Origin: a virus
IMG/VR virus record: IMGVR_UViG_3300032291_002524
Coordinates: 1 to 64,000 of that record
Direction: 5' to 3' (one strand)
Length of the DNA stretch: 64,000 bases
In this document: in pieces, positions 2,458 through 62,861 of the stretch
Numbering within the stretch: position 1 is the stretch's first letter
Layout of the letters: the number at the start of each line of letters is the position of its first letter
The notes under the pieces: model-generated
Told to the model about the DNA's origin: nothing
The model's database searches: none
What the model saw: the letters and a program-made list of their open reading frames with translations, nothing else
Translations under genes and position numbers: made by a program

Positions 2458-4094
2458 TAACAATAGGATATAGTACGAGAAAATCTAATCCTGAACTACA
2501 AGAGTATTTCAGAAAATCTTGTGGATTACCTAAAACACAAGTGATTGAAAAAGTTAATCCTGATGGTAGGTCACTAACTGAAATTTATAATGAAATTTTA
2601 AATGAATCAGAAAATGACATTGTAGTGCTTTGTCACGATGATATTTACTTTGAGACCAAAAGTTGGGGTAATAACATTTTATCCCATTTTAAAAAAACTA
2701 ATTTCGGTATTTTAGGGGTTGCCGGTTCAACAAGTATCCCATCTTCGGGTATGTGGTGGGAAGATAAGAGAAAAATGATTGGAATTGTTAATCATGAACA
2801 CGAAGGAAAAAAATGGGAATCAAAATATTCAAATAGTTTAGGTAAACAAATACATCCAACAATAATTGTTGACGGTTTGTTTATCGTAATAAGTAAAAAA
2901 AGAATTATACATCAATTTGACACTGAAGTTAAAGGATTTCATATGTATGATGTTGATTTTTGTTTTAAAAATTATTTGTCGGGTATTGAAGTTGGTGTTA
3001 TGTACGATATAAGAATCACCCATAAATCAATTGGTATGACGAATGATGAATGGGAAAAAAATAGAATTTTATTTTCTGAAAAGTTTAAAGAAAATTTACC
3101 AATCAAAATCAACAAAACTAAATCAGATAAGCTAAATATCCTAATTAGTTGTTTGTTTTTTAAAACATTTACCGGTTCTGAAATTTATGTATATGAATTA
3201 GCCAAAGGTTTGATAAAACAAGGTCATAATGTGTCCGTATTATCCGAAATTGGGGGGCCATTAACCGATATGGCAAAAAAAATTGGGATTAAAACTTTTT
3301 CATTAAAAGAACCTCCGGGTTATAAAATGGGGGACGGGGTTTGGGGTATTAACACACCTCACGGGTTTCAAATATCACAAGAAAACATGTTATATAAAAT
3401 TAACGATGTTAATTTTGATATCATCCATGTTCAACACGAACCCGTTACCAATATGATTTTACAGTTATATCCTGATATCGAAAAAATTTCAACAATACAT
3501 TCAGAAGTCATTGATTTGGAAAAACCAGTAAAACATGATTCCATCAAAAAATACATTGCAATTAGACCTGAAATTAAAGAACATATTGTTGAACATTATG
3601 ACATTAATGAAAATTTAGTTGATGTCATTTATAATCCTATCGATGAAAATAGATTTAAATCTGATAATATTAAGACGAAAAATTATGTTTTGTTTGTCGG
3701 TACTATTGATTACTTGAGAGAACAAACAATACGTGATTTAGTTGAATATACTAAAGAAAAAAACATGGAACTTTGGTTAGTCGGTGAAGATAAGTCTGAA
3801 TATTTAAATGAAATTTTAAGTCATATCCATGTTAAAAAAATAATACCAACTTGGAATACTGAAAAATATATAAAAGAATCACAAGAAACTGCGGGTATTT
3901 TATTAGGTAGAACGACCATTGAAAGTTGGATGTGTGGTAAAAAATCTTGGATTTATGATGTTGATAAATCAGGAACGATTCTTTCTAAGAAATTAACCGA
4001 ACCCCCACATGATATTCATAAATTTCATGCAAGTTCGGTAGTAGATAAACTGATTGATAATTATTTAACAATAATAAATGAAACTACTCATTAA
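2454..4094 (+). CDS. Two-domain glycosyltransferase (GT-A N-terminal, GT4-like C-terminal)
   Basis: N-terminal HDDI, GVAG, VDGLF, FHMYDVD. C-terminal GSEIYVYELAKGL..GHNV and GRTTIESWMCG. Confidence 0.75.
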   Translation: MITIGYSTRKSNPELQEYFRKSCGLPKTQVIEKVNPDGRSLTEIYNEILNESENDIVVLCHDDIYFETKSWGNNILSHFKKTNFGILGVAGSTSIPSSGMWWEDKRKMIGIVNHEHEGKKWESKYSNSLGKQIHPTIIVDGLFIVISKKRIIHQFDTEVKGFHMYDVDFCFKNYLSGIEVGVMYDIRITHKSIGMTNDEWEKNRILFSEKFKENLPIKINKTKSDKLNILISCLFFKTFTGSEIYVYELAKGLIKQGHNVSVLSEIGGPLTDMAKKIGIKTFSLKEPPGYKMGDGVWGINTPHGFQISQENMLYKINDVNFDIIHVQHEPVTNMILQLYPDIEKISTIHSEVIDLEKPVKHDSIKKYIAIRPEIKEHIVEHYDINENLVDVIYNPIDENRFKSDNIKTKNYVLFVGTIDYLREQTIRDLVEYTKEKNMELWLVGEDKSEYLNEILSHIHVKKIIPTWNTEKYIKESQETAGILLGRTTIESWMCGKKSWIYDVDKSGTILSKKLTEPPHDIHKFHASSVVDKLIDNYLTIINETTH

Positions 4095-42321: not shown

Positions 42322-43544
42322 AAAATTTCGCCTCTTGGAGATACTTTAATTTGTTTTCCTTCTGATTCAAATATTAAATTTTTCAAATTAGTTTTACCCA
42401 AAAATTTAATATTTTGATTTTCACTTAAAATAAATTCAGATGTTAATTCTTGTTCGATAGTTTCTGATAAATTTTTAATTTCATCTAAAACACCAACTTT
42501 ATTTATTTTCTTTTTAATAAAGTTATTAACTTTTTTAGTTTCAATTTGTTTTTGTTCTTCTTCAGTTATTACGAAGTACTTAGATAATACTTTATCAACT
42601 TTAGATTCATTAAACATTTCATCCATTACTCTATGTAAAGGGTTCGCAGCTTCACCGACTTCAGGTTCAACACTAATTTCATCGGAACCCATCTCATCAC
42701 CCAAATCCATTGGCGGATTAGAATCTGACGGTGTCATAGCAATATCTAAATCGTAATTTGAATCATCTTCATCACCTTCAAATTTAGACATAATATCTTC
42801 AACATCTTCATCAGTTAAACTTGATAAATCAAGTGCTGACAATATCGAATTAATGACATATTTAATATCTTCAGATGTCATTTCTTCTTTTTCACTATAA
42901 CTTCTAATTTTTTGACCTAACTTCCCGGTTATCTTTTGAATCGTTTTAAATGTAGTAACATCATCACCATTTTCATCAGACCCCGCATCAACATTAGTAT
43001 CATCCATAGACGGCTCATCAATTGATAAATCGTCCATACCCATATCGTCACCCATGTCCATATCTGAATCCATTTCAGGTTCAGAAACTTCAGGTGATGG
43101 TGTCATTTCAGGTTCAGAAACTTCAGGTGATGGTGTCATTTCAGGTTCCATCTGTGGTGCTGATTGTTTAGGAAGTCTTAAAACTTTTTTTTGTTCACCA
43201 AACATTTCAGTTCCCGATTCATTTTCATTCAATCTGTTCAGTTCACCAGCAATTAAATTTAATTTCTTTAATGCTTGTGAATATGATGAATGATATTTTC
43301 TATTTTTCATAGGTTCTGAATAATCTAACGAAGACTCATCAAGACCTTTCTTAATTATATATCCTTGTCTTTCTTTAACAATTCCATATGTATAACCATC
43401 AACTAAAACACGTGAATAGTTTAAAGTTTGATTTTCGTTTATTTCCTTATGAGGTTTTTCACCATATGTTGCAATTTCCATAATACGGGAAATTTTATCG
43501 ATTCCTTGAAGTTTTTCACTTCCTATTGGTTTTAAATCTGCCAT
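42318..43544 (-). CDS. Hypothetical acidic protein (candidate head-associated)
   Basis: 408 aa with acidic low-complexity linkers and an 11-aa repeat. Confidence 0.65.
   Translation of the reverse strand: MADLKPIGSEKLQGIDKISRIMEIATYGEKPHKEINENQTLNYSRVLVDGYTYGIVKERQGYIIKKGLDESSLDYSEPMKNRKYHSSYSQALKKLNLIAGELNRLNENESGTEMFGEQKKVLRLPKQSAPQMEPEMTPSPEVSEPEMTPSPEVSEPEMDSDMDMGDDMGMDDLSIDEPSMDDTNVDAGSDENGDDVTTFKTIQKITGKLGQKIRSYSEKEEMTSEDIKYVINSILSALDLSSLTDEDVEDIMSKFEGDEDDSNYDLDIAMTPSDSNPPMDLGDEMGSDEISVEPEVGEAANPLHRVMDEMFNESKVDKVLSKYFVITEEEQKQIETKKVNNFIKKKINKVGVLDEIKNLSETIEQELTSEFILSENQNIKFLGKTNLKNLIFESEGKQIKVSPRGEIL
43071..43148. repeat. 33-bp tandem coding repeat (about 2.4 copies)
   Basis: CATTTCAGGTTCAGAAACTTCAGGTGATGGTGT twice plus a partial copy; encodes EPEMTPSPEVS. 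Confidence 0.9.
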
Positions 43545-44889: not shown

Positions 44890-45348
44890 TTATTCGTATT
44901 TTTTAAGTTCGTCCCTAACCTTAATGGCTTCTTCGAATTCTTGTTTTTCAATATGAGATTTTAATTTTTCTTGTAATTCATTAATTAAACCTTCATTTTC
45001 TTCAAGGTCTTTAATTGTATCACGAAGTTTAATCGCCAATAGAAAATCTTCATTCTTAACCGCAATATCCAATTCTTTCTTTAAAGATTCGATTTTTGAT
45101 GTTGGTTTGTTTTCTTTTCTTTTATCACTACCATCATATGTTTTTATATAAGTTGTGATTTTATAAAAACCATCTTTTGATGTGTATGTTTGTTTGGTCC
45201 AATCCCCATTAGAATCTGAACCATTTTCGGTTTTTGTTTCACCTTTAAAAGTTAATGGTGAATCATAACCACCAATCATTTCATTTAATTCATCCATAAG
45301 TTCTTTTAAACTTTTACTGTTTCTTCCAAATAAATCGAACATATTCAT
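44890..45348 (-). CDS. Protein with two C-terminal UVR (UvrB/UvrC-type) coiled-coil motifs; candidate ClpC adaptor
   Basis: LKKELDIAVKNEDFLLAIKLRDTI and LQEKLKSHIEKQEFEEAIKVRDEL. Confidence 0.75.
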   Translation of the reverse strand: MNMFDLFGRNSKSLKELMDELNEMIGGYDSPLTFKGETKTENGSDSNGDWTKQTYTSKDGFYKITTYIKTYDGSDKRKENKPTSKIESLKKELDIAVKNEDFLLAIKLRDTIKDLEENEGLINELQEKLKSHIEKQEFEEAIKVRDELKKYE

Positions 45349-45492: not shown

Positions 45493-45500
45493 TATATTTG
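45493..45500 (+). promoter_or_regulatory. Bacteroidota sigma-A -7 element upstream of clpC
   Basis: TATATTTG with TTG 19 nt upstream. Confidence 0.55.
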
Positions 45501-45506
45501 TGGTGT

Positions 45507-47567
45507 ATGATAGATTTTGACGATAATCAAGAAGCAGGAAAGAAGAAAACTTCCAAATCAGAAAATACGGGAAGTTCAACCCCCGTTTTAGATAATTTTT
45601 CTCGTGATTTAATTAAATTGGCATCCGAAGGTAAATTAGACCCCGTTATTGGTCGAGATATTGAAATTAATAGACTTGCCCAAATTATATCAAGGAGAAA
45701 GAAAAATAACCCAATATTAATCGGTGAGCCCGGTTGTGGAAAAACAGCTGTGGTTGAAGGATTGGCCATCAAAATTTTTGAAGGTAATTGCCCTCAAAAT
45801 TTGTTAGATAAACGAATTGTTAGTTTGGATATGACATCAATCGTTGCAGGTACCAAATATCGTGGTCAATTTGAAGAACGTTTAAAAGTTATTTTAGATG
45901 AACTTCGAGATAATCATGAAACCATTGTGTTTATTGATGAAATTCACACAATTATAGGTGCGGGTAATTCTTCGGGGTCACTTGACGCATCCAACATCTT
46001 TAAACCTGCACTTGCACGTGGAGAACTCCAATGTATCGGAGCAACAACCTTGGACGAATATCGGGAACATATTGAAAAGGACGGAGCATTGGAAAGACGG
46101 TTCCAAAAGGTTTTAGTTGAACCATCTTCAATTGAAGATACAATCACAATCCTAATGAGAGCCAAGGAAAACTATGAAAAACACCATAAAGTTTTCTTCA
46201 GTGAAGAATCAATTAAAGCATGTGTTCATTTGGCCGATAGGTATATAACTGACCGAAGTTTTCCTGATAAAGCAATTGATATCATGGATGAAGTCGGAGC
46301 TCGTAGTCAAATCGCTGTTAAATTACCGGAAGTTATTGAACAGTTAAAAGAAGAAGCTGAAAAAATAAAACAGAGTAAGTTAGATGTTGTTAGAAATCAG
46401 AGATTTGAGGAAGCCGCAGAACTTCGTGACCGTGAACGAAAAGTGTTAAAACAATTACAAGAAGAAAAAGAAAAGTTTGAAAATGACCGTTTAACAAATA
46501 AAAAACTTGTCGATGAGAACATGGTGTATGAAGTGGTTGCATCAATGACAAAGATACCAATCACCAAATTGACACAGTCAGAATCAGAATCACTACTTCA
46601 ATTAGAACAAAATTTACAAAATTCAGTTATTGGTCAAGATGATGCTGTTAGTAAAATTGCAAAGGCAATCCGACGAAATCGTGTTGGGATTAAAGAACCT
46701 AACAAACCAATTGGTTCATTTATTTTTCTTGGGTCCACAGGTATTGGTAAAACCCATTTGGCTAAACAATTAGCAAAAGAAGTTTTTGGTGATTCGGACG
46801 CATTAATTCGAATGGATATGTCAGAATATCAAGAAAAATTTACAATGTCTCGTTTGATTGGTTCACCTCCGGGTTATGTTGGATTTAATGAAGGAGGTCA
46901 ATTGACTGAACAGGTTAGAAATAAACCATATTCGGTAATATTATTTGACGAAATCGAAAAGGCCCATAAAGATATCTTCACTTTATTGTTACAAACAATG
47001 GACGAAGGGTTCTTAACCGATAGTAATGGTAGAAAAATTAATTTCAAAAATACCGTTATTATTATGACATCTAACATTGGTGCTAGAAAAGTTCAAGAAT
47101 TCGGTGCTGGTGTTGGTTTTGGCACAAGTGCTAAAATGGATAAAGAACTTGAAATAAAGAAAATGGCAGTAGAGGATGAACTGAAGAAGTTTTTCCCACC
47201 TGAATTTATAAATCGTGTTGATGATATTGTATTCTTTAATTCATTAAAAGAAGATGAAGTGAATCAGATTGTTAAAATTGAATTATCAAAATTAACCAAC
47301 AGACTTTCATCTATGAACTATAAAATCGAAATAGGTGACGAAATGTTGAAACATATTTGTGAAATTGGTTTCGATGAAAAGTTTGGGGCCAGACCTATTA
47401 AAAGAGCAATTCAAAGTCAAATTGAAGACTTTATTTCCGATGAAATATTAAAAGGTAATTTAATCACTGATATTGAATATACTGTGGATTATATAGATGG
47501 TTCACCTTTATTAATAACCAAAGATTCAAAACCGAAACGAGTAAAGAAAAAGAAAGAAACTGAATAA
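45507..47567 (+). CDS. clpC: ClpC-like AAA+ unfoldase lacking the N-terminal Clp-repeat domain
   Basis: GEPGCGKT/IDEIH and GSTGIGKT/LFDEIEKAH, UVR M-domain FEEAAELRD, ClpP-docking VGF loop. Only about 25 aa precede LDNFSRDL. Confidence 0.92.
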   Translation: MIDFDDNQEAGKKKTSKSENTGSSTPVLDNFSRDLIKLASEGKLDPVIGRDIEINRLAQIISRRKKNNPILIGEPGCGKTAVVEGLAIKIFEGNCPQNLLDKRIVSLDMTSIVAGTKYRGQFEERLKVILDELRDNHETIVFIDEIHTIIGAGNSSGSLDASNIFKPALARGELQCIGATTLDEYREHIEKDGALERRFQKVLVEPSSIEDTITILMRAKENYEKHHKVFFSEESIKACVHLADRYITDRSFPDKAIDIMDEVGARSQIAVKLPEVIEQLKEEAEKIKQSKLDVVRNQRFEEAAELRDRERKVLKQLQEEKEKFENDRLTNKKLVDENMVYEVVASMTKIPITKLTQSESESLLQLEQNLQNSVIGQDDAVSKIAKAIRRNRVGIKEPNKPIGSFIFLGSTGIGKTHLAKQLAKEVFGDSDALIRMDMSEYQEKFTMSRLIGSPPGYVGFNEGGQLTEQVRNKPYSVILFDEIEKAHKDIFTLLLQTMDEGFLTDSNGRKINFKNTVIIMTSNIGARKVQEFGAGVGFGTSAKMDKELEIKKMAVEDELKKFFPPEFINRVDDIVFFNSLKEDEVNQIVKIELSKLTNRLSSMNYKIEIGDEMLKHICEIGFDEKFGARPIKRAIQSQIEDFISDEILKGNLITDIEYTVDYIDGSPLLITKDSKPKRVKKKKETE

Positions 47568-50693: not shown

Positions 50694-50725
50694 TTTGGAA
50701 GTTTAATAAAGTATTTATATATTTG
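50694..50725 (+). promoter_or_regulatory. Bacteroidota sigma-A promoter driving the ncRNA-tmRNA-ribozyme transcript
   Basis: TTTG (50694-50697), N20, TATATTTG (50718-50725). Confidence 0.7.
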
Positions 50726-50730
50726 TATAA

Positions 50731-50814
50731 GAAATCACGGGTGGCTCCCTTAATAGTTAAGGCTGACCTTAAGCATCTGACGTTATGTCTATACAGGGGG
50801 CGAAAGTGATTTTC
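50731..50814 (+). ncRNA. Unassigned structured RNA upstream of the tmRNA
   Basis: Nested helices AAATCAC/GTGATTT, GCTCCCT/AGGGGGC, TTAAGG-ctga-CCTTAA; GC-rich relative to its flanks. Confidence 0.5.
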
Positions 50815-50833
50815 ATAAGTTCTTTGAAAATAT

Positions 50834-51216
50834 GGGGATGACACAGAATTGATTGGCGTGGTTAGTCAATTGGTGCACGTATGAGCTGAATTAACTCATT
50901 AAAAACTGATTTAAAAACACAAACGGCAACGTTTTAAATAAAATGGCTGCTTGCGGTTTAATCCGTGAAGACGCTGCTGTTGTAGCTTAATCAGCACAAC
51001 ACACTCAGGTCGGGGGACATATAACCTAGGAACAGAAGTCTTTAGAGGTGTGGTTTCTATCTTAAAAGAAACAAGTGGAGGATTAGTTCTCAGTAAACCG
51101 AACCACTATAAAATAAGGGAATTGTGAATTTCGGAACATTAGCAAATGTTGACCTAAACGTGTAGGACCTTTTGGTTAAGACGAACAAGACCGCGGGGCA
51201 GTGCCGCGCATCTCCA
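50834..51216 (+). ncRNA. ssrA: tmRNA (one-piece, CCA not encoded)
   Basis: Acceptor stem GGGGATG/CATCTCC-A with the G3:U70 alanine determinant; GAC-CGCGG-GGCAGTG-CCGCG T-arm; helix-2 pairing TGCACGT/ACGTGTA; PK1-like ATGAG/CTCAT; internal Ala-ending tag frame. Confidence 0.92.
50925..50990 (+). other. tmRNA tag reading frame, (A)GNVLNKMAACGLIREDAAVVA*
   Basis: Resume codon GGC follows an A-rich segment after PK1; ends at TAA with a hydrophobic, Ala-terminated C-terminus. The resume position is inferred. Confidence 0.75.
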
Positions 51217-51270
51217 GGCTCACAATTGAATACCTCCACGTGGTGTGAGCTGGGTAACGCTAAATTCAAT
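51217..51270 (+). ncRNA. Minimal HDV-like (theta-type) self-cleaving ribozyme
   Basis: P1 GGCTCAC/GTGAGCT (G1-U wobble), J1/2 A, P2 ATTGAAT/ATTCAAT, P3 ACC/GGT, L3 TCCACGT, P1.1 CC/GG, vestigial P4 GTAAC, J4/2 GCTAA with catalytic C51260. Confidence 0.88.
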
Positions 51271-51297
51271 AATCATTACAGTTATTAATTAAAAATT

Positions 51298-51328
51298 AAA
51301 GTGGTCAAATTCGACCACTTTTTTTTTG
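51298..51328 (+). terminator. Intrinsic terminator after the tmRNA-ribozyme unit
   Basis: AAAGTGGTC-aaattc-GACCACTTT followed by a T-tract. Confidence 0.85.
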
Positions 51329-51356
51329 TGCATTTAAAATCTATTTAGTATCTTTG
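51325..51356 (+). promoter_or_regulatory. Bacteroidota sigma-A promoter
   Basis: TTTG (51325-51328), N20, TATCTTTG (51349-51356). Confidence 0.7.
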
Positions 51357-52114: not shown

Positions 52115-52594
52115 ATGCAGACGTTCCTACCTTATCCCGATTTTAAAGAAAGTTTCCGAGCCTTAGATAATAAAAGACTCGGAAAACAAAGAGTTGAATC
52201 ATTTCAAATTTTAAATGCGATATTAGGTCGACCAAAAAAAGACGGTAAACCATATAAAGGGTGGTTAAATCATCCGTGTTCGATTATGTGGAAAGAGCAC
52301 GTTCCGGCCCTTCAAATGTATTTTAATGAATGTATTGATGTATGGATTGAACGCGGATTTAAAAATTCGATGGAATATGAAGAATATGTTGGTGAAATAA
52401 TCTTACCTGATTGGATAGGATACGAAGCATTTCACGCATCTCACAGAGCCAATTTACTTAGGAAGGATTTAACATATTATTCACAACATAATTGGGATGA
52501 AAATCCTGATGACCCATACTTATGGCTAGACGATAACAAAACTTGGTATCAACAAATAGTTGGGTCGAAAAAAAGGGTTTATTTGATTAAATAA
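52115..52594 (+). CDS. Pyrimidine-dimer DNA glycosylase/DenV-related protein (MSMEG_6728-like)
   Basis: MQTFLPYPDF...LDNKRLGKQRVE..QIL, W.NHP...MW, SHRANLLRKD...Y. Confidence 0.8.
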   Translation: MQTFLPYPDFKESFRALDNKRLGKQRVESFQILNAILGRPKKDGKPYKGWLNHPCSIMWKEHVPALQMYFNECIDVWIERGFKNSMEYEEYVGEIILPDWIGYEAFHASHRANLLRKDLTYYSQHNWDENPDDPYLWLDDNKTWYQQIVGSKKRVYLIK

Positions 52595-52622: not shown

Positions 52623-53120
52623 ATGGAGACTGTAATAGTATTAAATTTTGATTATACACCATTAAACGTAACTTCTATACGTAGAGGTTTTGTATTAGTG
52701 GACAAAGGAAAGGCGGAGATTTTAAAAGAATATGATGACCCAATTATCACAACAGTTGGTAGGTTGGTGAAACCATTAATTATACGATTATTAAAATTTA
52801 TCAATTATCATAATAAGAAAGATTTAAAAATTTCAAGACAAAGAATCTATCAAAGGGATGGATTTCAATGTGTGTATTGCGGTACGTATAAAAATTTAAC
52901 AATTGACCATGTAATGCCTAAGTCACGTGGTGGTGCCAATTCTTGGGAAAATATGGTTACTTGTTGTTTTACTTGTAATTCAAAAAAAGGTAGTAAAACA
53001 CCTGAAGAGGCAAATATGTCAATGAGAGTTCGTCCGTATAAACCATCGGTATTCTCAGAATTGGTTGCAGGAAGGGCTGCAAATATTTGGCAAAGTCTTC
53101 AGAAAGAAATTTTTAATTAA
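52623..53120 (+). CDS. HNH endonuclease (McrA/HNH_5-like)
   Basis: VLN.DY.PL N-terminus; RDGFQCVYCG, TIDHVMPKSRGG..SWENMVTCC..CN..KG. Confidence 0.9.
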   Translation: METVIVLNFDYTPLNVTSIRRGFVLVDKGKAEILKEYDDPIITTVGRLVKPLIIRLLKFINYHNKKDLKISRQRIYQRDGFQCVYCGTYKNLTIDHVMPKSRGGANSWENMVTCCFTCNSKKGSKTPEEANMSMRVRPYKPSVFSELVAGRAANIWQSLQKEIFN

Positions 53121-60671: not shown

Positions 60672-61322
60672 ATGAAATTAGTTTTAAAACCAGGACAAAA
60701 ATTATTTTTTACCAGTGATACGCATTATAATCACTCAAATATTTGTCGAGCGACCACAAATTGGGTTGGTTCTGAAAATTTGACTCGTGATTTTAAATCT
60801 TTGGAGCACATGAATTCAACTTTGGTTAATAATATTAATGAAGTTGTTGGTGAAGATGATATTTTAATCCACTTGGGAGACTGGTCTTTCGGCGGATTTG
60901 AACAAATTGAAGAATTTAGAAATAAAATCTTGTGTAAGAATATTCATTTGATTTATGGTAATCATGACCATCACATTAGAAGAAATAAAGAAAATATTCA
61001 ACGATTATTTTCTTCAACCCAAGATTATTTAAATCTTGATTTAAGAATTCCTAATGGGAAAAATACTGATAAATTAACATTAGTTTGTATGCACTACCCA
61101 ATCGCAAGTTGGGACAGCATGAACAACGGTGTTATACATTTACACGGTCACGTTCACTTACCACCAAACCTGAGAATTGCGGAAGGTAGAGCCATGGATG
61201 TCGGTGTTGATGGTAATAACCTATATCCAATTTCGATTCAAGAAATCAAATCTTTAATGAAAGGTAGACCGGTTAAAAAATTGGTTTTACCGAAAGACCA
61301 TCACGAAACAAATAATAAATAA
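60672..61322 (+). CDS. Calcineurin-like metallophosphoesterase
   Basis: SDTH, LGD, GNHD, HYP, HLHGHVH, DVGVD; TAACTTTG -7 element at 60660. Confidence 0.9.
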   Translation: MKLVLKPGQKLFFTSDTHYNHSNICRATTNWVGSENLTRDFKSLEHMNSTLVNNINEVVGEDDILIHLGDWSFGGFEQIEEFRNKILCKNIHLIYGNHDHHIRRNKENIQRLFSSTQDYLNLDLRIPNGKNTDKLTLVCMHYPIASWDSMNNGVIHLHGHVHLPPNLRIAEGRAMDVGVDGNNLYPISIQEIKSLMKGRPVKKLVLPKDHHETNNK

Positions 61323-61334
61323 TAAAATTAAAAC

Positions 61335-61754
61335 ATGGAAAATATCACAAACGATAAAGTAATTATACTATTGCGTGGAATTCCTGGCTCGGGCAAATCC
61401 ACTATAGCTAAAATGATTGTGGGAAATGAAAAAGAGTACCGTCACAAAGAAGCTGACATGTATTTTGTTGACGAAAATGGTGATTATAAGTTTAAACCAA
61501 GTCAAATAAGAGATGCTCATCAATGGTGTCAAGAAAGTGTTGATTTTTTAATGAGTCATTCTCATTCCCCTGTCGTGGTATCAAACACATTCACACAAGA
61601 ATGGGAAATGGAACCATATTACAAAATGGCTGAAAAGTATGGTTATAGAGTTCACTCACTAATTGTTGAAAACCGCCACGGTGGTATAAATGAACACGGT
61701 GTTCCTGAAGACAAGTTACAAGCGATGAGAGACCGATTTGAAGTAAAATTATAA
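61335..61754 (+). CDS. P-loop kinase (AAA_33/polynucleotide-kinase-like)
   Basis: LRGIPGSGKST, EADMYF, AHQWCQ, VVVSNTFT..WE, HGVP. Confidence 0.85.
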   Translation: MENITNDKVIILLRGIPGSGKSTIAKMIVGNEKEYRHKEADMYFVDENGDYKFKPSQIRDAHQWCQESVDFLMSHSHSPVVVSNTFTQEWEMEPYYKMAEKYGYRVHSLIVENRHGGINEHGVPEDKLQAMRDRFEVKL

Positions 61755-62180: not shown

Positions 62181-62861
62181 ATGAACAATACAGATTTTAA
62201 AAACTATTTTACCAAACACTTGGGTAAAGGCTCATTAATGTTGGATTATTACAACCAAAGAATTGAAGATTCGATGACACCTTATATTTTGGAAGAAAGA
62301 GAGATGAGAGTGACCCAGATGGATATTTTTTCACGATTAATGAGGGACCGTTTACTATGGGTGGCGGGGCCTGTTGATGATAACATGTCCACAGTTGTCC
62401 AAGCACAATTAATGTATTTAGATTCGGTTAATAATATGGACATAACGATGCACATTGATTCGCCAGGTGGCTCTGTTAAATCCGGTTTATCGATGATTGA
62501 CGTTATGGATTATATATCATGTGATATTCACACCATTAATACCGGTATGGCAGCATCCATGGGTTCCGTGTTGTTAGGCGCTGGAACCAAAGGTAAACGT
62601 TCGTCTTTAAGATTTTCACGTACCATGTTACACCAATCTTCAGGGGGTTTCCGTGGAAATATCCAAGACGCTAAGATTGATATGATTGAGTGGGAGAAAG
62701 TGAATAAGATTTTATTTGATTTGTTAGGTTCATATTGTGATAAATCGGCAGAACAAGTAATGGAAGACGCTTCTCGTGACCTGTGGTTAGATTCCAAATC
62801 TGCGTTAGAATACGGAATTATTGACGAAATTATTACATCAAAAAATAAAATGAAAAAATAA
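62181..62861 (+). CDS. clpP: ATP-dependent Clp protease proteolytic subunit
   Basis: DIFSRLMRDR, DSPGGSV, GMAASMGS (catalytic Ser), MLHQ (His), RDLWL...ALEYGIIDEI. Confidence 0.95.
   Translation: MNNTDFKNYFTKHLGKGSLMLDYYNQRIEDSMTPYILEEREMRVTQMDIFSRLMRDRLLWVAGPVDDNMSTVVQAQLMYLDSVNNMDITMHIDSPGGSVKSGLSMIDVMDYISCDIHTINTGMAASMGSVLLGAGTKGKRSSLRFSRTMLHQSSGGFRGNIQDAKIDMIEWEKVNKILFDLLGSYCDKSAEQVMEDASRDLWLDSKSALEYGIIDEIITSKNKMKK

Follow-up and report, generated by a model that had tools for sequence, protein, structure and literature searches.

The stretch of DNA analysed here (hereafter the window) consists of positions 1 to 64,000, the first 64 kb, of the 106,315-base IMG/VR virus record IMGVR_UViG_3300032291_002524. 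It was found to contain, on the plus strand, a transfer-messenger RNA (tmRNA) gene whose 3' end is directly followed by a theta ribozyme, a minimal ribozyme of the hepatitis delta virus (HDV)-like class. CheckV rates the record as only 34% complete, so that it covers just part of the genome of a very large phage. The parts of the tmRNA and of the ribozyme are arranged as follows, with helices (P), joining segments (J) and loops (L) of the ribozyme named in the usual way for this fold.

50834..51216, plus strand: tmRNA of 383 nucleotides (nt), family RF00023, ending at the discriminator A51216 without an encoded CCA
50946..50990, plus strand: tag reading frame of the tmRNA, encoding AACGLIREDAAVVA followed by a stop (in relatives, AAIGLIREDASVLA and ATIGLIRENASVVA)
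51192..51208, plus strand: T-arm of the tmRNA, with the stem CGCGG/CCGCG and a non-canonical 7-nt loop, GGCAGTG
51216..51217, plus strand: predicted scissile bond, between A51216 and G51217, with the same junction at other tmRNA-theta loci
51217..51270, plus strand: theta (minimal HDV-like) ribozyme of 54 nt, comprising P1, J1/2, P2, P3, L3, P1.1, a P4 remnant and J4/2
51217-23 / 51245-51, plus strand: P1 of 7 bp, GGCTCAC/GTGAGCT, in which G51217-T51251 is the G1.U wobble
51224, plus strand: J1/2, A51224
51225-31 / 51264-70, plus strand: P2, ATTGAAT/ATTCAAT
51232-34 / 51242-44, plus strand: P3, ACC/GGT
51235-41, plus strand: L3, TCCACGT
51236, 51237 / 51253, 51252, plus strand: P1.1, C51236/C51237 with G51253/G51252
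51254-59, plus strand: P4/L4 remnant of 6 nt, GTAACG
51260-63, plus strand: J4/2, CTAA, of which C51260 is the first base
51260, plus strand: catalytic cytosine position, at the start of J4/2 and corresponding to C45 in the ribozyme theta-0016

The tmRNA gene

The tmRNA was identified by a full-length match to RF00023 in a local scan, with a borderline score (47.2 bits against a gathering threshold of 47, E 2e-17). A run of Rfam over the whole window at the gathering thresholds found nothing, the tmRNA included, and it was recovered only by the local scan on E-value. Similarly, ARAGORN called neither a tRNA nor a tmRNA anywhere in the 64-kb window. The acceptor stem is formed by GGGGATG (50834-50840) pairing with CATCTCC (51209-51215) and includes the G3.U pair; the identity features for alanyl-tRNA synthetase (AlaRS), G3.U70 and the discriminator A51216, are thus present. 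Because the base after the discriminator is G, no CCA is encoded, and the 3' end at A51216 claimed in the original prediction can be read directly from the sequence, base for base. The tag frame starts with a GCN resume codon and closes with a hydrophobic/Ala C-terminus and a stop.

Four syntenic relatives (loci L123-L126) were recovered via a neighbouring gene of 717 amino acids (aa), with 45-47% protein identity. All four carry a tmRNA at the same position (RF00023, 53.6-100.8 bits), 80-86% identical to that of the window, and compensatory changes are present in both the acceptor stem and the T stem. The tag is also conserved among them, with substitutions mainly in third codon positions. 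The RF00023 match and this conservation indicate that the tmRNA is genuine, as had been proposed. The possibility that it is an attP remnant of a host ssrA gene was rejected on the basis of its full length, its 5' end, its tag frame and the compensatory evolution seen in the relatives. A 59-aa open reading frame (ORF) on the minus strand (51090-51269) was also rejected as a real gene, as it lies wholly within the conserved RNA genes.

Structure of the ribozyme

Every helix of the ribozyme is perfectly paired, beginning at G51217, and the whole forms a nested double pseudoknot. The helices and the catalytic C51260 named in the original prediction were confirmed base for base, and G51217 (G1) directly abuts the discriminator A51216 as it had claimed. 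The parse is identical in format to that of the published theta descriptor. The core CCTCC-N-CGTGG, N8, GGGTAA-NN-CTAA occurs once in the window compared with 0.00 occurrences expected (100 shuffles, 2 mismatches allowed), and a descriptor scan of the whole 106-kb record gave one convincing HDV fold. A covariance model (R1) built from 23 other theta ribozymes, with the window sequence excluded, scored 67.9 bits on the window (E about 2e-16) over 51217-51271, its full model length. A weak match of the same model at 42380-42422 on the minus strand (22.2 bits, GC 0.16) was treated as spurious.

Theta family membership

Kienbeck et al. (2024, Nat Commun 15:1559, PMC10879173) described theta ribozymes as a minimal form of the HDV-like class that adjoins phage tRNAs on their 3' side, and ribozymes of the HDV-like class cut 5' of G1 (Kienbeck et al., 2024). 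IMG/VR was scanned with a pattern holding only 25 core bases (ACCTCCACGTGGT, N7, GGGTAACGCTAA) in which P1 and P2 were unspecified, and the exact 25-nt core was found in 24 viral loci. A perfect 7-bp P1, differing in sequence between loci, is present in 21 of these; by the strict test the other three have no P1, one of which pairs at 6/7 positions when read by eye. In most of the 24 loci, ARAGORN called a tRNA whose 3' terminus lies no more than 1 nt from G1.

In an alignment of 25 family members, 94.5% of the cells were paired compared with 62.8% after shuffling and 33-47% with slid partners, a percentage inflated by the pre-filtering of the rows for P1/P2 pairing; for this reason the unfiltered scan of 24 loci is the cleaner evidence. 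Double-sided changes were observed in 6/7 pairs of P1, 7/7 of P2 and 1/3 of P3 (14/19 overall). The closing pair of G1 is G.U in 19 members and G-C in five, and the catalytic C is invariant in all 25. P1 and P2 accordingly show the free covariation and the compensated helices that the original prediction had proposed to look for, and the assignment of the window ribozyme to the theta family is supported by sequence, structure and covariation.

A published theta sequence was found to be identical to the window ribozyme at 53 of 54 positions, the sole difference being the last base of P1, and it stands among the 'isolated' theta ribozymes in Supplementary Data 2 of PMC10879173. By the published criterion, a ribozyme is tRNA-associated when tRNAscan-SE calls a tRNA that has its 3' end at most 5 nt from the cleavage site. 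The window contains no called tRNA, and the window ribozyme counts as 'isolated' under that definition because the RNA upstream of it is a tmRNA. Self-scission dependent on Mg2+ has been shown for four theta members, and theta-0016, which cleaves itself in the presence of Mg2+, loses its activity on the change C45U (Kienbeck et al., 2024). The primers for theta-0016 hold the same 3' core as the window ribozyme, GG-GTAACG-CTAA (GGGTAACGCTAA). Judged by its family membership and by the core shared with theta-0016, the window ribozyme is itself likely to self-cleave.

Recurrence at other tmRNAs

A first, loose pattern (CTCCAG..CCTCNNCGTGG) applied to viral contigs returned chance matches, with HDV-like pairing in one of the 118 matches listed, and that one unconvincing. 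With patterns consisting of TCCA followed by G1 and the theta core, the discriminator A was found to be directly followed by G1 in no fewer than five further tmRNAs, a diverse set from phages or metagenomes. The loci are listed below; the full-length tmRNAs among them all score above the Rfam threshold.

L155 (= L173 = L189): full-length tmRNA then theta ribozyme, RF00023 60 bits
L162 (= L176): full-length tmRNA then theta ribozyme, RF00023 70.2 bits
L167 (= L187): full-length tmRNA then theta ribozyme, RF00023 69 bits
L188: full-length tmRNA then theta ribozyme, RF00023 74 bits
L193, 4979-5364: full-length tmRNA then theta ribozyme, RF00023 55.5 bits
L174: probable tmRNA-theta case, 36.3 bits
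L172: probable tmRNA-theta case, cut at the contig end
L168, 9155-9290; L171, 2034-2164 (minus strand); L177, 1120-1254 (minus strand): RNA of 80-82 nt with a tRNA-like domain, then theta ribozyme

The tmRNAs of the theta-fused loci share 51-68% mutual identity and have unrelated tags. Those of L167 and L188 (63-66% identical) are followed by a homologous ribozyme with the same P2 as in the window, while the P1 sequences (GATTCAC/GTGAATC in these two loci, GGCTCAC/GTGAGCT in the window) differ in a compensatory manner. A second theta ribozyme is present in L155, where it lies behind a tRNA. The RNAs of 80-82 nt in L168, L171 and L177 match RF00023 from end to end (45.8-50.7 bits) and look like 'mini-tmRNAs' reduced to the tRNA-like domain.

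The mini-tmRNAs of L168 and L177 were found ~500 nt from a ROOL RNA (286.6 bits). The small contig of L171 also holds, at 3002-3056 on the minus strand, a sub-threshold match to the type-P1 twister (39.1 bits compared with a threshold of 67.2, E 4.5e-5). Locus L193 is a 41.6-kb contig binned to a metagenome-assembled genome of Candidatus Saccharibacteria, with ORFans and a GIY-YIG nuclease as the neighbours of the tmRNA, which looks phage-like; the contig may come from a phage placed in the wrong bin, in which case the tmRNA is not a cellular one.

Transcription unit

The elements flanking the tmRNA and its ribozyme are as follows.

50718..50725, plus strand: promoter-like -7 box TATATTTG, of the type TAnnTTTG, ~110 nt upstream of the tmRNA
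50740..50833 (approximate), plus strand: 5' leader of ~95 nt, a presumed RNase P substrate
51271..51297, plus strand: A/T-rich linker, part of a ~77-nt segment missing from the relatives
51298..51330, plus strand: intrinsic terminator with a stem of 9 bp and a T run behind it; in L123-L126 this hairpin comes straight after the tmRNA

The block TATAT(A/C)TTTGTATAA is conserved in L123, L124 and L126. A second TAnnTTTG box, TATCTTTG, lies at about 51349-51356, upstream of the next gene, and such blocks are also present in L123-L126. The TAnnTTTG boxes resemble the -7 promoter elements of Bacteroidota, and we take them to be promoters; they hint at a host within Bacteroidota. The leader (50740-50833) is near-identical in L124 and L126 and unrelated in L123, and it has no match in Rfam; it may represent either a small RNA released by processing or a leader with a structure of its own.

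The phage and its neighbouring genes

Other genes of the window which bear on the tmRNA, or lie close to it, are given here.

44890-45348, minus strand: UVR-motif protein
45498-47567, plus strand: two-ring ClpA/B/C-type AAA+ ATPase (AAA_2, E 3e-65; ClpB_D2-small)
52115-52594, plus strand: pyrimidine-dimer DNA glycosylase (PF03013, E 9e-21), just downstream of the tmRNA unit
52623-53120, plus strand: HNH endonuclease (E 3e-16), just downstream of the tmRNA unit
60672..61322, plus strand: calcineurin-like phosphoesterase (PF00149, E 2.6e-5; phrog_547 'phosphoesterase', E 1.5e-43)
61335..61754, plus strand: P-loop AAA_33 / polynucleotide-kinase-like protein adjoining the phosphoesterase (PF13671, E 2.3e-11; phrog_2071, E 1.9e-42; phrog_505 'polynucleotide kinase', E 6e-10)
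62181-62861, plus strand: ClpP (PF00574, E 6e-54)

With translation table 11, stop-free frames of at least 100 aa cover 88% of the record and the recoding of TAG or TGA adds little, which upholds the description of the phage as one using the standard code. The tmRNA-ribozyme region had no match among 50,697 phage records (blastn). The phage has ~28-30 tRNA genes, clustered at 74-94 kb of the record and hence outside the window (L194, L195), and most of them are without an encoded CCA. One ARAGORN call in these clusters has an odd 2-nt anticodon. The possession of its own tmRNA, ClpP and Clp ATPase may provide the phage with a private tag-and-degrade pathway.

Proposed maturation of the tmRNA

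We consider it likely that the ribozyme is active and that it matures the 3' end of the tmRNA by a cut between A51216 and G51217. A single transcript would start at the promoter near 50720, end at the terminator (51298-51330) and contain the leader, the tmRNA, the ribozyme and the trailer. The ribozyme would fold during transcription, and C51260, as general acid, together with a bound Mg2+ would cut the bond between A51216 and G51217. Cleavage of the HDV type leaves a 2',3'-cyclic phosphate, and the tmRNA would be released exactly at its discriminator with this end. The product made up of ribozyme and terminator, with a 5'-OH as reported for the ribozyme product of such cleavage (Kienbeck et al., 2024, PMC10879173), would be discarded. 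This downstream product holds only the ribozyme, the linker and the terminator and has no ORF, so that no other job for the ribozyme is apparent.

Removal of the cyclic phosphate, whether by a host enzyme or by the phosphoesterase/kinase-like pair of the phage (60672-61754), and then addition of CCA would have to precede charging by AlaRS via G3.U. The phage pair might thus represent candidate, possibly split, end-healing enzymes for the cyclic phosphate on A51216. Most of the phage tRNAs have no encoded CCA, so that an activity adding CCA is required regardless of the tmRNA. In vivo, the ribozyme would replace the step performed by RNase Z or an exonuclease, and would do so for the tmRNA alone.

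A number of observations weigh against this proposal, in addition to the pre-filtering of the alignment rows mentioned above. No ribozyme was found in L123-L126, either with model R1 or by alignment. In these relatives the discriminator is followed by CCA (L123) or by CTA/CTT (L124-L126), and then directly by the same terminator hairpin. The nearest relatives therefore manage without a ribozyme, three of them also without an encoded CCA, and it follows that the ribozyme is not required for a tmRNA of this type. On the other hand, the same tmRNA and terminator stand in the relatives without it, and the ~77 nt at 51217-51293 therefore make up a discrete module set exactly at the discriminator, a point that counts in favour of the proposal. 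The absence of the ribozyme from their trailers marks it as a module gained or lost rather than a conserved part of the tmRNA lineage; it was either gained in the lineage of the window or lost in the relatives. The comparison among tmRNAs that the original prediction had suggested gave a positive result: the same junction is present in no fewer than five further, varied tmRNAs, where P1 and P2 differ in sequence and are compensated. The trailers of the closest homologues, L123-L126, are without the ribozyme. A tandem duplication, AATTAAA-AATTAAA, is located at 51287-51300, on the 3' edge of the segment missing from the relatives, and may be a trace of the recombination which brought in or removed the ribozyme.

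The T-loop of the tmRNA, GGCAGTG, also departs from the canonical TTCRANN. The corresponding loops are GGCGGTA in L124 and GGCAGTA in L126, while L123 has a canonical TTCGATA. The non-canonical loop was thus observed in three lineages, all without an encoded CCA, and the canonical loop of L123 occurs together with an encoded CCA. A conserved variant is a more likely explanation of this loop than decay. In addition, a theta ribozyme was present at none of the ~28-30 tRNAs of the phage, even with the filters off.

The two HDV-like models of Rfam gave matches which begin at 51217 but remain below gathering, at 31.8 bits for drz-agam-1 (RF01787; gathering 37, E 2.8e-4) and 27.5 bits for HDV-F-prausnitzii (RF02682; gathering 44, E 0.007). 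These models expect a P4, of which there is a 6-nt remnant here, and this accounts for the low scores; the window ribozyme is not filed as a member of either family. The minimum free energy (MFE) fold of the 54 nt recovered P1 and P3 with a z-score of -0.37, no better than that of shuffled sequences. Such a result is to be expected, as nested-only thermodynamics is uninformative for a pseudoknot, and it gives no support either.

Finally, the 2',3'-cyclic phosphate would block CCA addition until it is healed, and the 106 kb of the record yielded no CCA-adding enzyme, SmpB (PF01668), RtcB, DRB0094 ligase or 2H phosphoesterase. With the record only 34% complete, these missing enzymes are not evidence of absence, and host SmpB may serve the phage tmRNA.

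Alternative explanations

An active ribozyme with a regulatory role is an explanation to which we would give a low probability. The cyclic phosphate would in that case keep the tmRNA uncharged until end healing by the phage and CCA addition had taken place, and so would time trans-translation and tagging for the phage ClpP/Clp-ATPase. This would be in keeping with the end left by HDV-type chemistry, with a phosphoesterase and a polynucleotide-kinase-like P-loop protein being encoded side by side, with the ClpP and two-ring Clp ATPase of the phage, and with the relatives, which show the ribozyme to be dispensable for making the tmRNA. However, it is by family names alone that the phosphoesterase pair is tied to RNA ends, and the same ribozymes occur behind ordinary tRNAs in other phages, so plain 3' trimming is the simpler explanation.

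Slightly less probable again is that the ribozyme was acquired recently as a mobile module, selfish or neutral, or is a relic without activity; it would then contribute nothing that the tmRNA needs, and host RNases would produce the 3' end here just as they do in the relatives. Its absence from the four closest relatives, its patchy distribution among tmRNAs that are only 51-68% identical and the AATTAAA duplication at its 3' edge (51287-51300) would suit such an origin. Yet all of its catalytic and structural features are intact, and the compensatory differences in P1 compared with L167 and L188 indicate selection for pairing. Moreover, every independent tmRNA case has G1 as the very next base to the discriminator, and in the family G1 is no more than 1 nt away from the tRNA ends, a placement which a neutral insertion would not maintain. 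Chance resemblance of an A/T-rich trailer to a loose HDV motif, for which the sub-gathering Rfam matches, the non-significant MFE z-score and the chance matches of the first loose pattern might be cited, is effectively refuted by a 25-nt core identical to that of catalogued theta ribozymes (with one published sequence 53/54 identical), the 67.9 bits of the independent model R1, the expectation of 0 chance core matches in the window and the perfect pairing of P1, P2, P3 and P1.1.

Significance

In the literature searched, no paper was found which relevantly joins tmRNA and HDV-like ribozymes. The novelty suggested for the fusion stands to that extent as regards the pairing with a tmRNA, but not as regards the ribozyme sequence, which was already catalogued (53/54). 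Kienbeck et al. (2024; PMC10879173) detected the partners of theta ribozymes by tRNAscan-SE only, never mention tmRNA, and report 526 'isolated' theta hits of unknown function. As the partners were called in this way, the tmRNA-linked cases fell among those 526 hits; such partners escape detection, as tmRNA is not among the genes called by tRNAscan-SE, and the tmRNA of the window is overlooked by ARAGORN as well. The tmRNA-ribozyme fusion is confirmed as a real feature, in which a known ribozyme family is found on a new class of substrate, and which is recurrent and, as far as searched, unpublished. The reading offered for it in the original prediction is supported.

It can be suggested, with some reserve and as a proposition that falls a little short of being the favoured one, that theta ribozymes are general makers of 3' ends for tRNAs, full tmRNAs and 80-nt mini-tmRNAs, and that a sizeable part of the 526 isolated ones are associated with tmRNAs. 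In the phage studied here the tmRNA alone would be served, with the ~30 tRNAs using other routes. On this suggestion, the trans-translation arm of the phage (tmRNA, ClpP, Clp ATPase and possibly an end-healing pair) would be independent of, or timed apart from, the 3'-processing of the host. If the proposed maturation is correct, protein RNases can give way to a small ribozyme in the processing of a second class of translation RNA, and a number of the published 'isolated' theta ribozymes would gain a definite function. In annotation, divergent phage tmRNAs that standard finders miss can be flagged by the presence of a theta ribozyme, which also fixes their 3' ends to the base. The question of how a cyclic-phosphate end would become a CCA-tailed, alanylated tmRNA during infection is thereby made testable.

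Comparison with known systems

The window ribozyme agrees with the published theta ribozymes (Kienbeck et al., 2024; PMC10879173) in its 7-bp P1, short J1/2, P2, P3 of ACC/GGT, L3 of U-CC-ACGU, GG, GTAACG and CTAA, and it shares its 25-nt core with many catalogued members. As in those cases, G1 directly follows a tRNA-like acceptor end without an encoded CCA, and the phage is large and tRNA-rich with promoter boxes of the Bacteroidota type. It differs in that the upstream RNA is a 383-nt tmRNA and not a tRNA, in that theta ribozymes are missing from all the tRNAs of this phage, and in that the phage is not recoded; the CCA-adding enzyme and DRB0094 ligase enriched in the published cases were not found in the 106 kb (34% complete). 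With RF02682 and RF01787 it has in common the fold class, the conserved residues of P3/L3/P1.1 and J4/2 and a match start at G51217, whereas its P4 is reduced to a 6-nt remnant and its scores are below gathering.

The tmRNA resembles the standard one-piece genes of RF00023 in its tRNA-like domain with G3.U, its tag ORF with hydrophobic residues and an Ala end, its pseudoknot-rich body and its syntenic position in related phages. Unlike in those genes, the first bases of a ribozyme take the position of CCA, and the T-loop is GGCAGUG. Three forms of tmRNA gene are known (standard, intron-containing and permuted), none of them with a self-cleaving ribozyme at the 3' end (2025 tmRNA database, PMC11915505), and a tmRNA fused to a 3' ribozyme would be a fourth. 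The closest technical parallel is the laboratory use of HDV ribozymes to obtain exact 3' ends, as in the tRNA array method (PMC12381190), where there is likewise no requirement for upstream sequence and the 3' end is precise; that arrangement was engineered, whereas the one described here is natural and recurrent.

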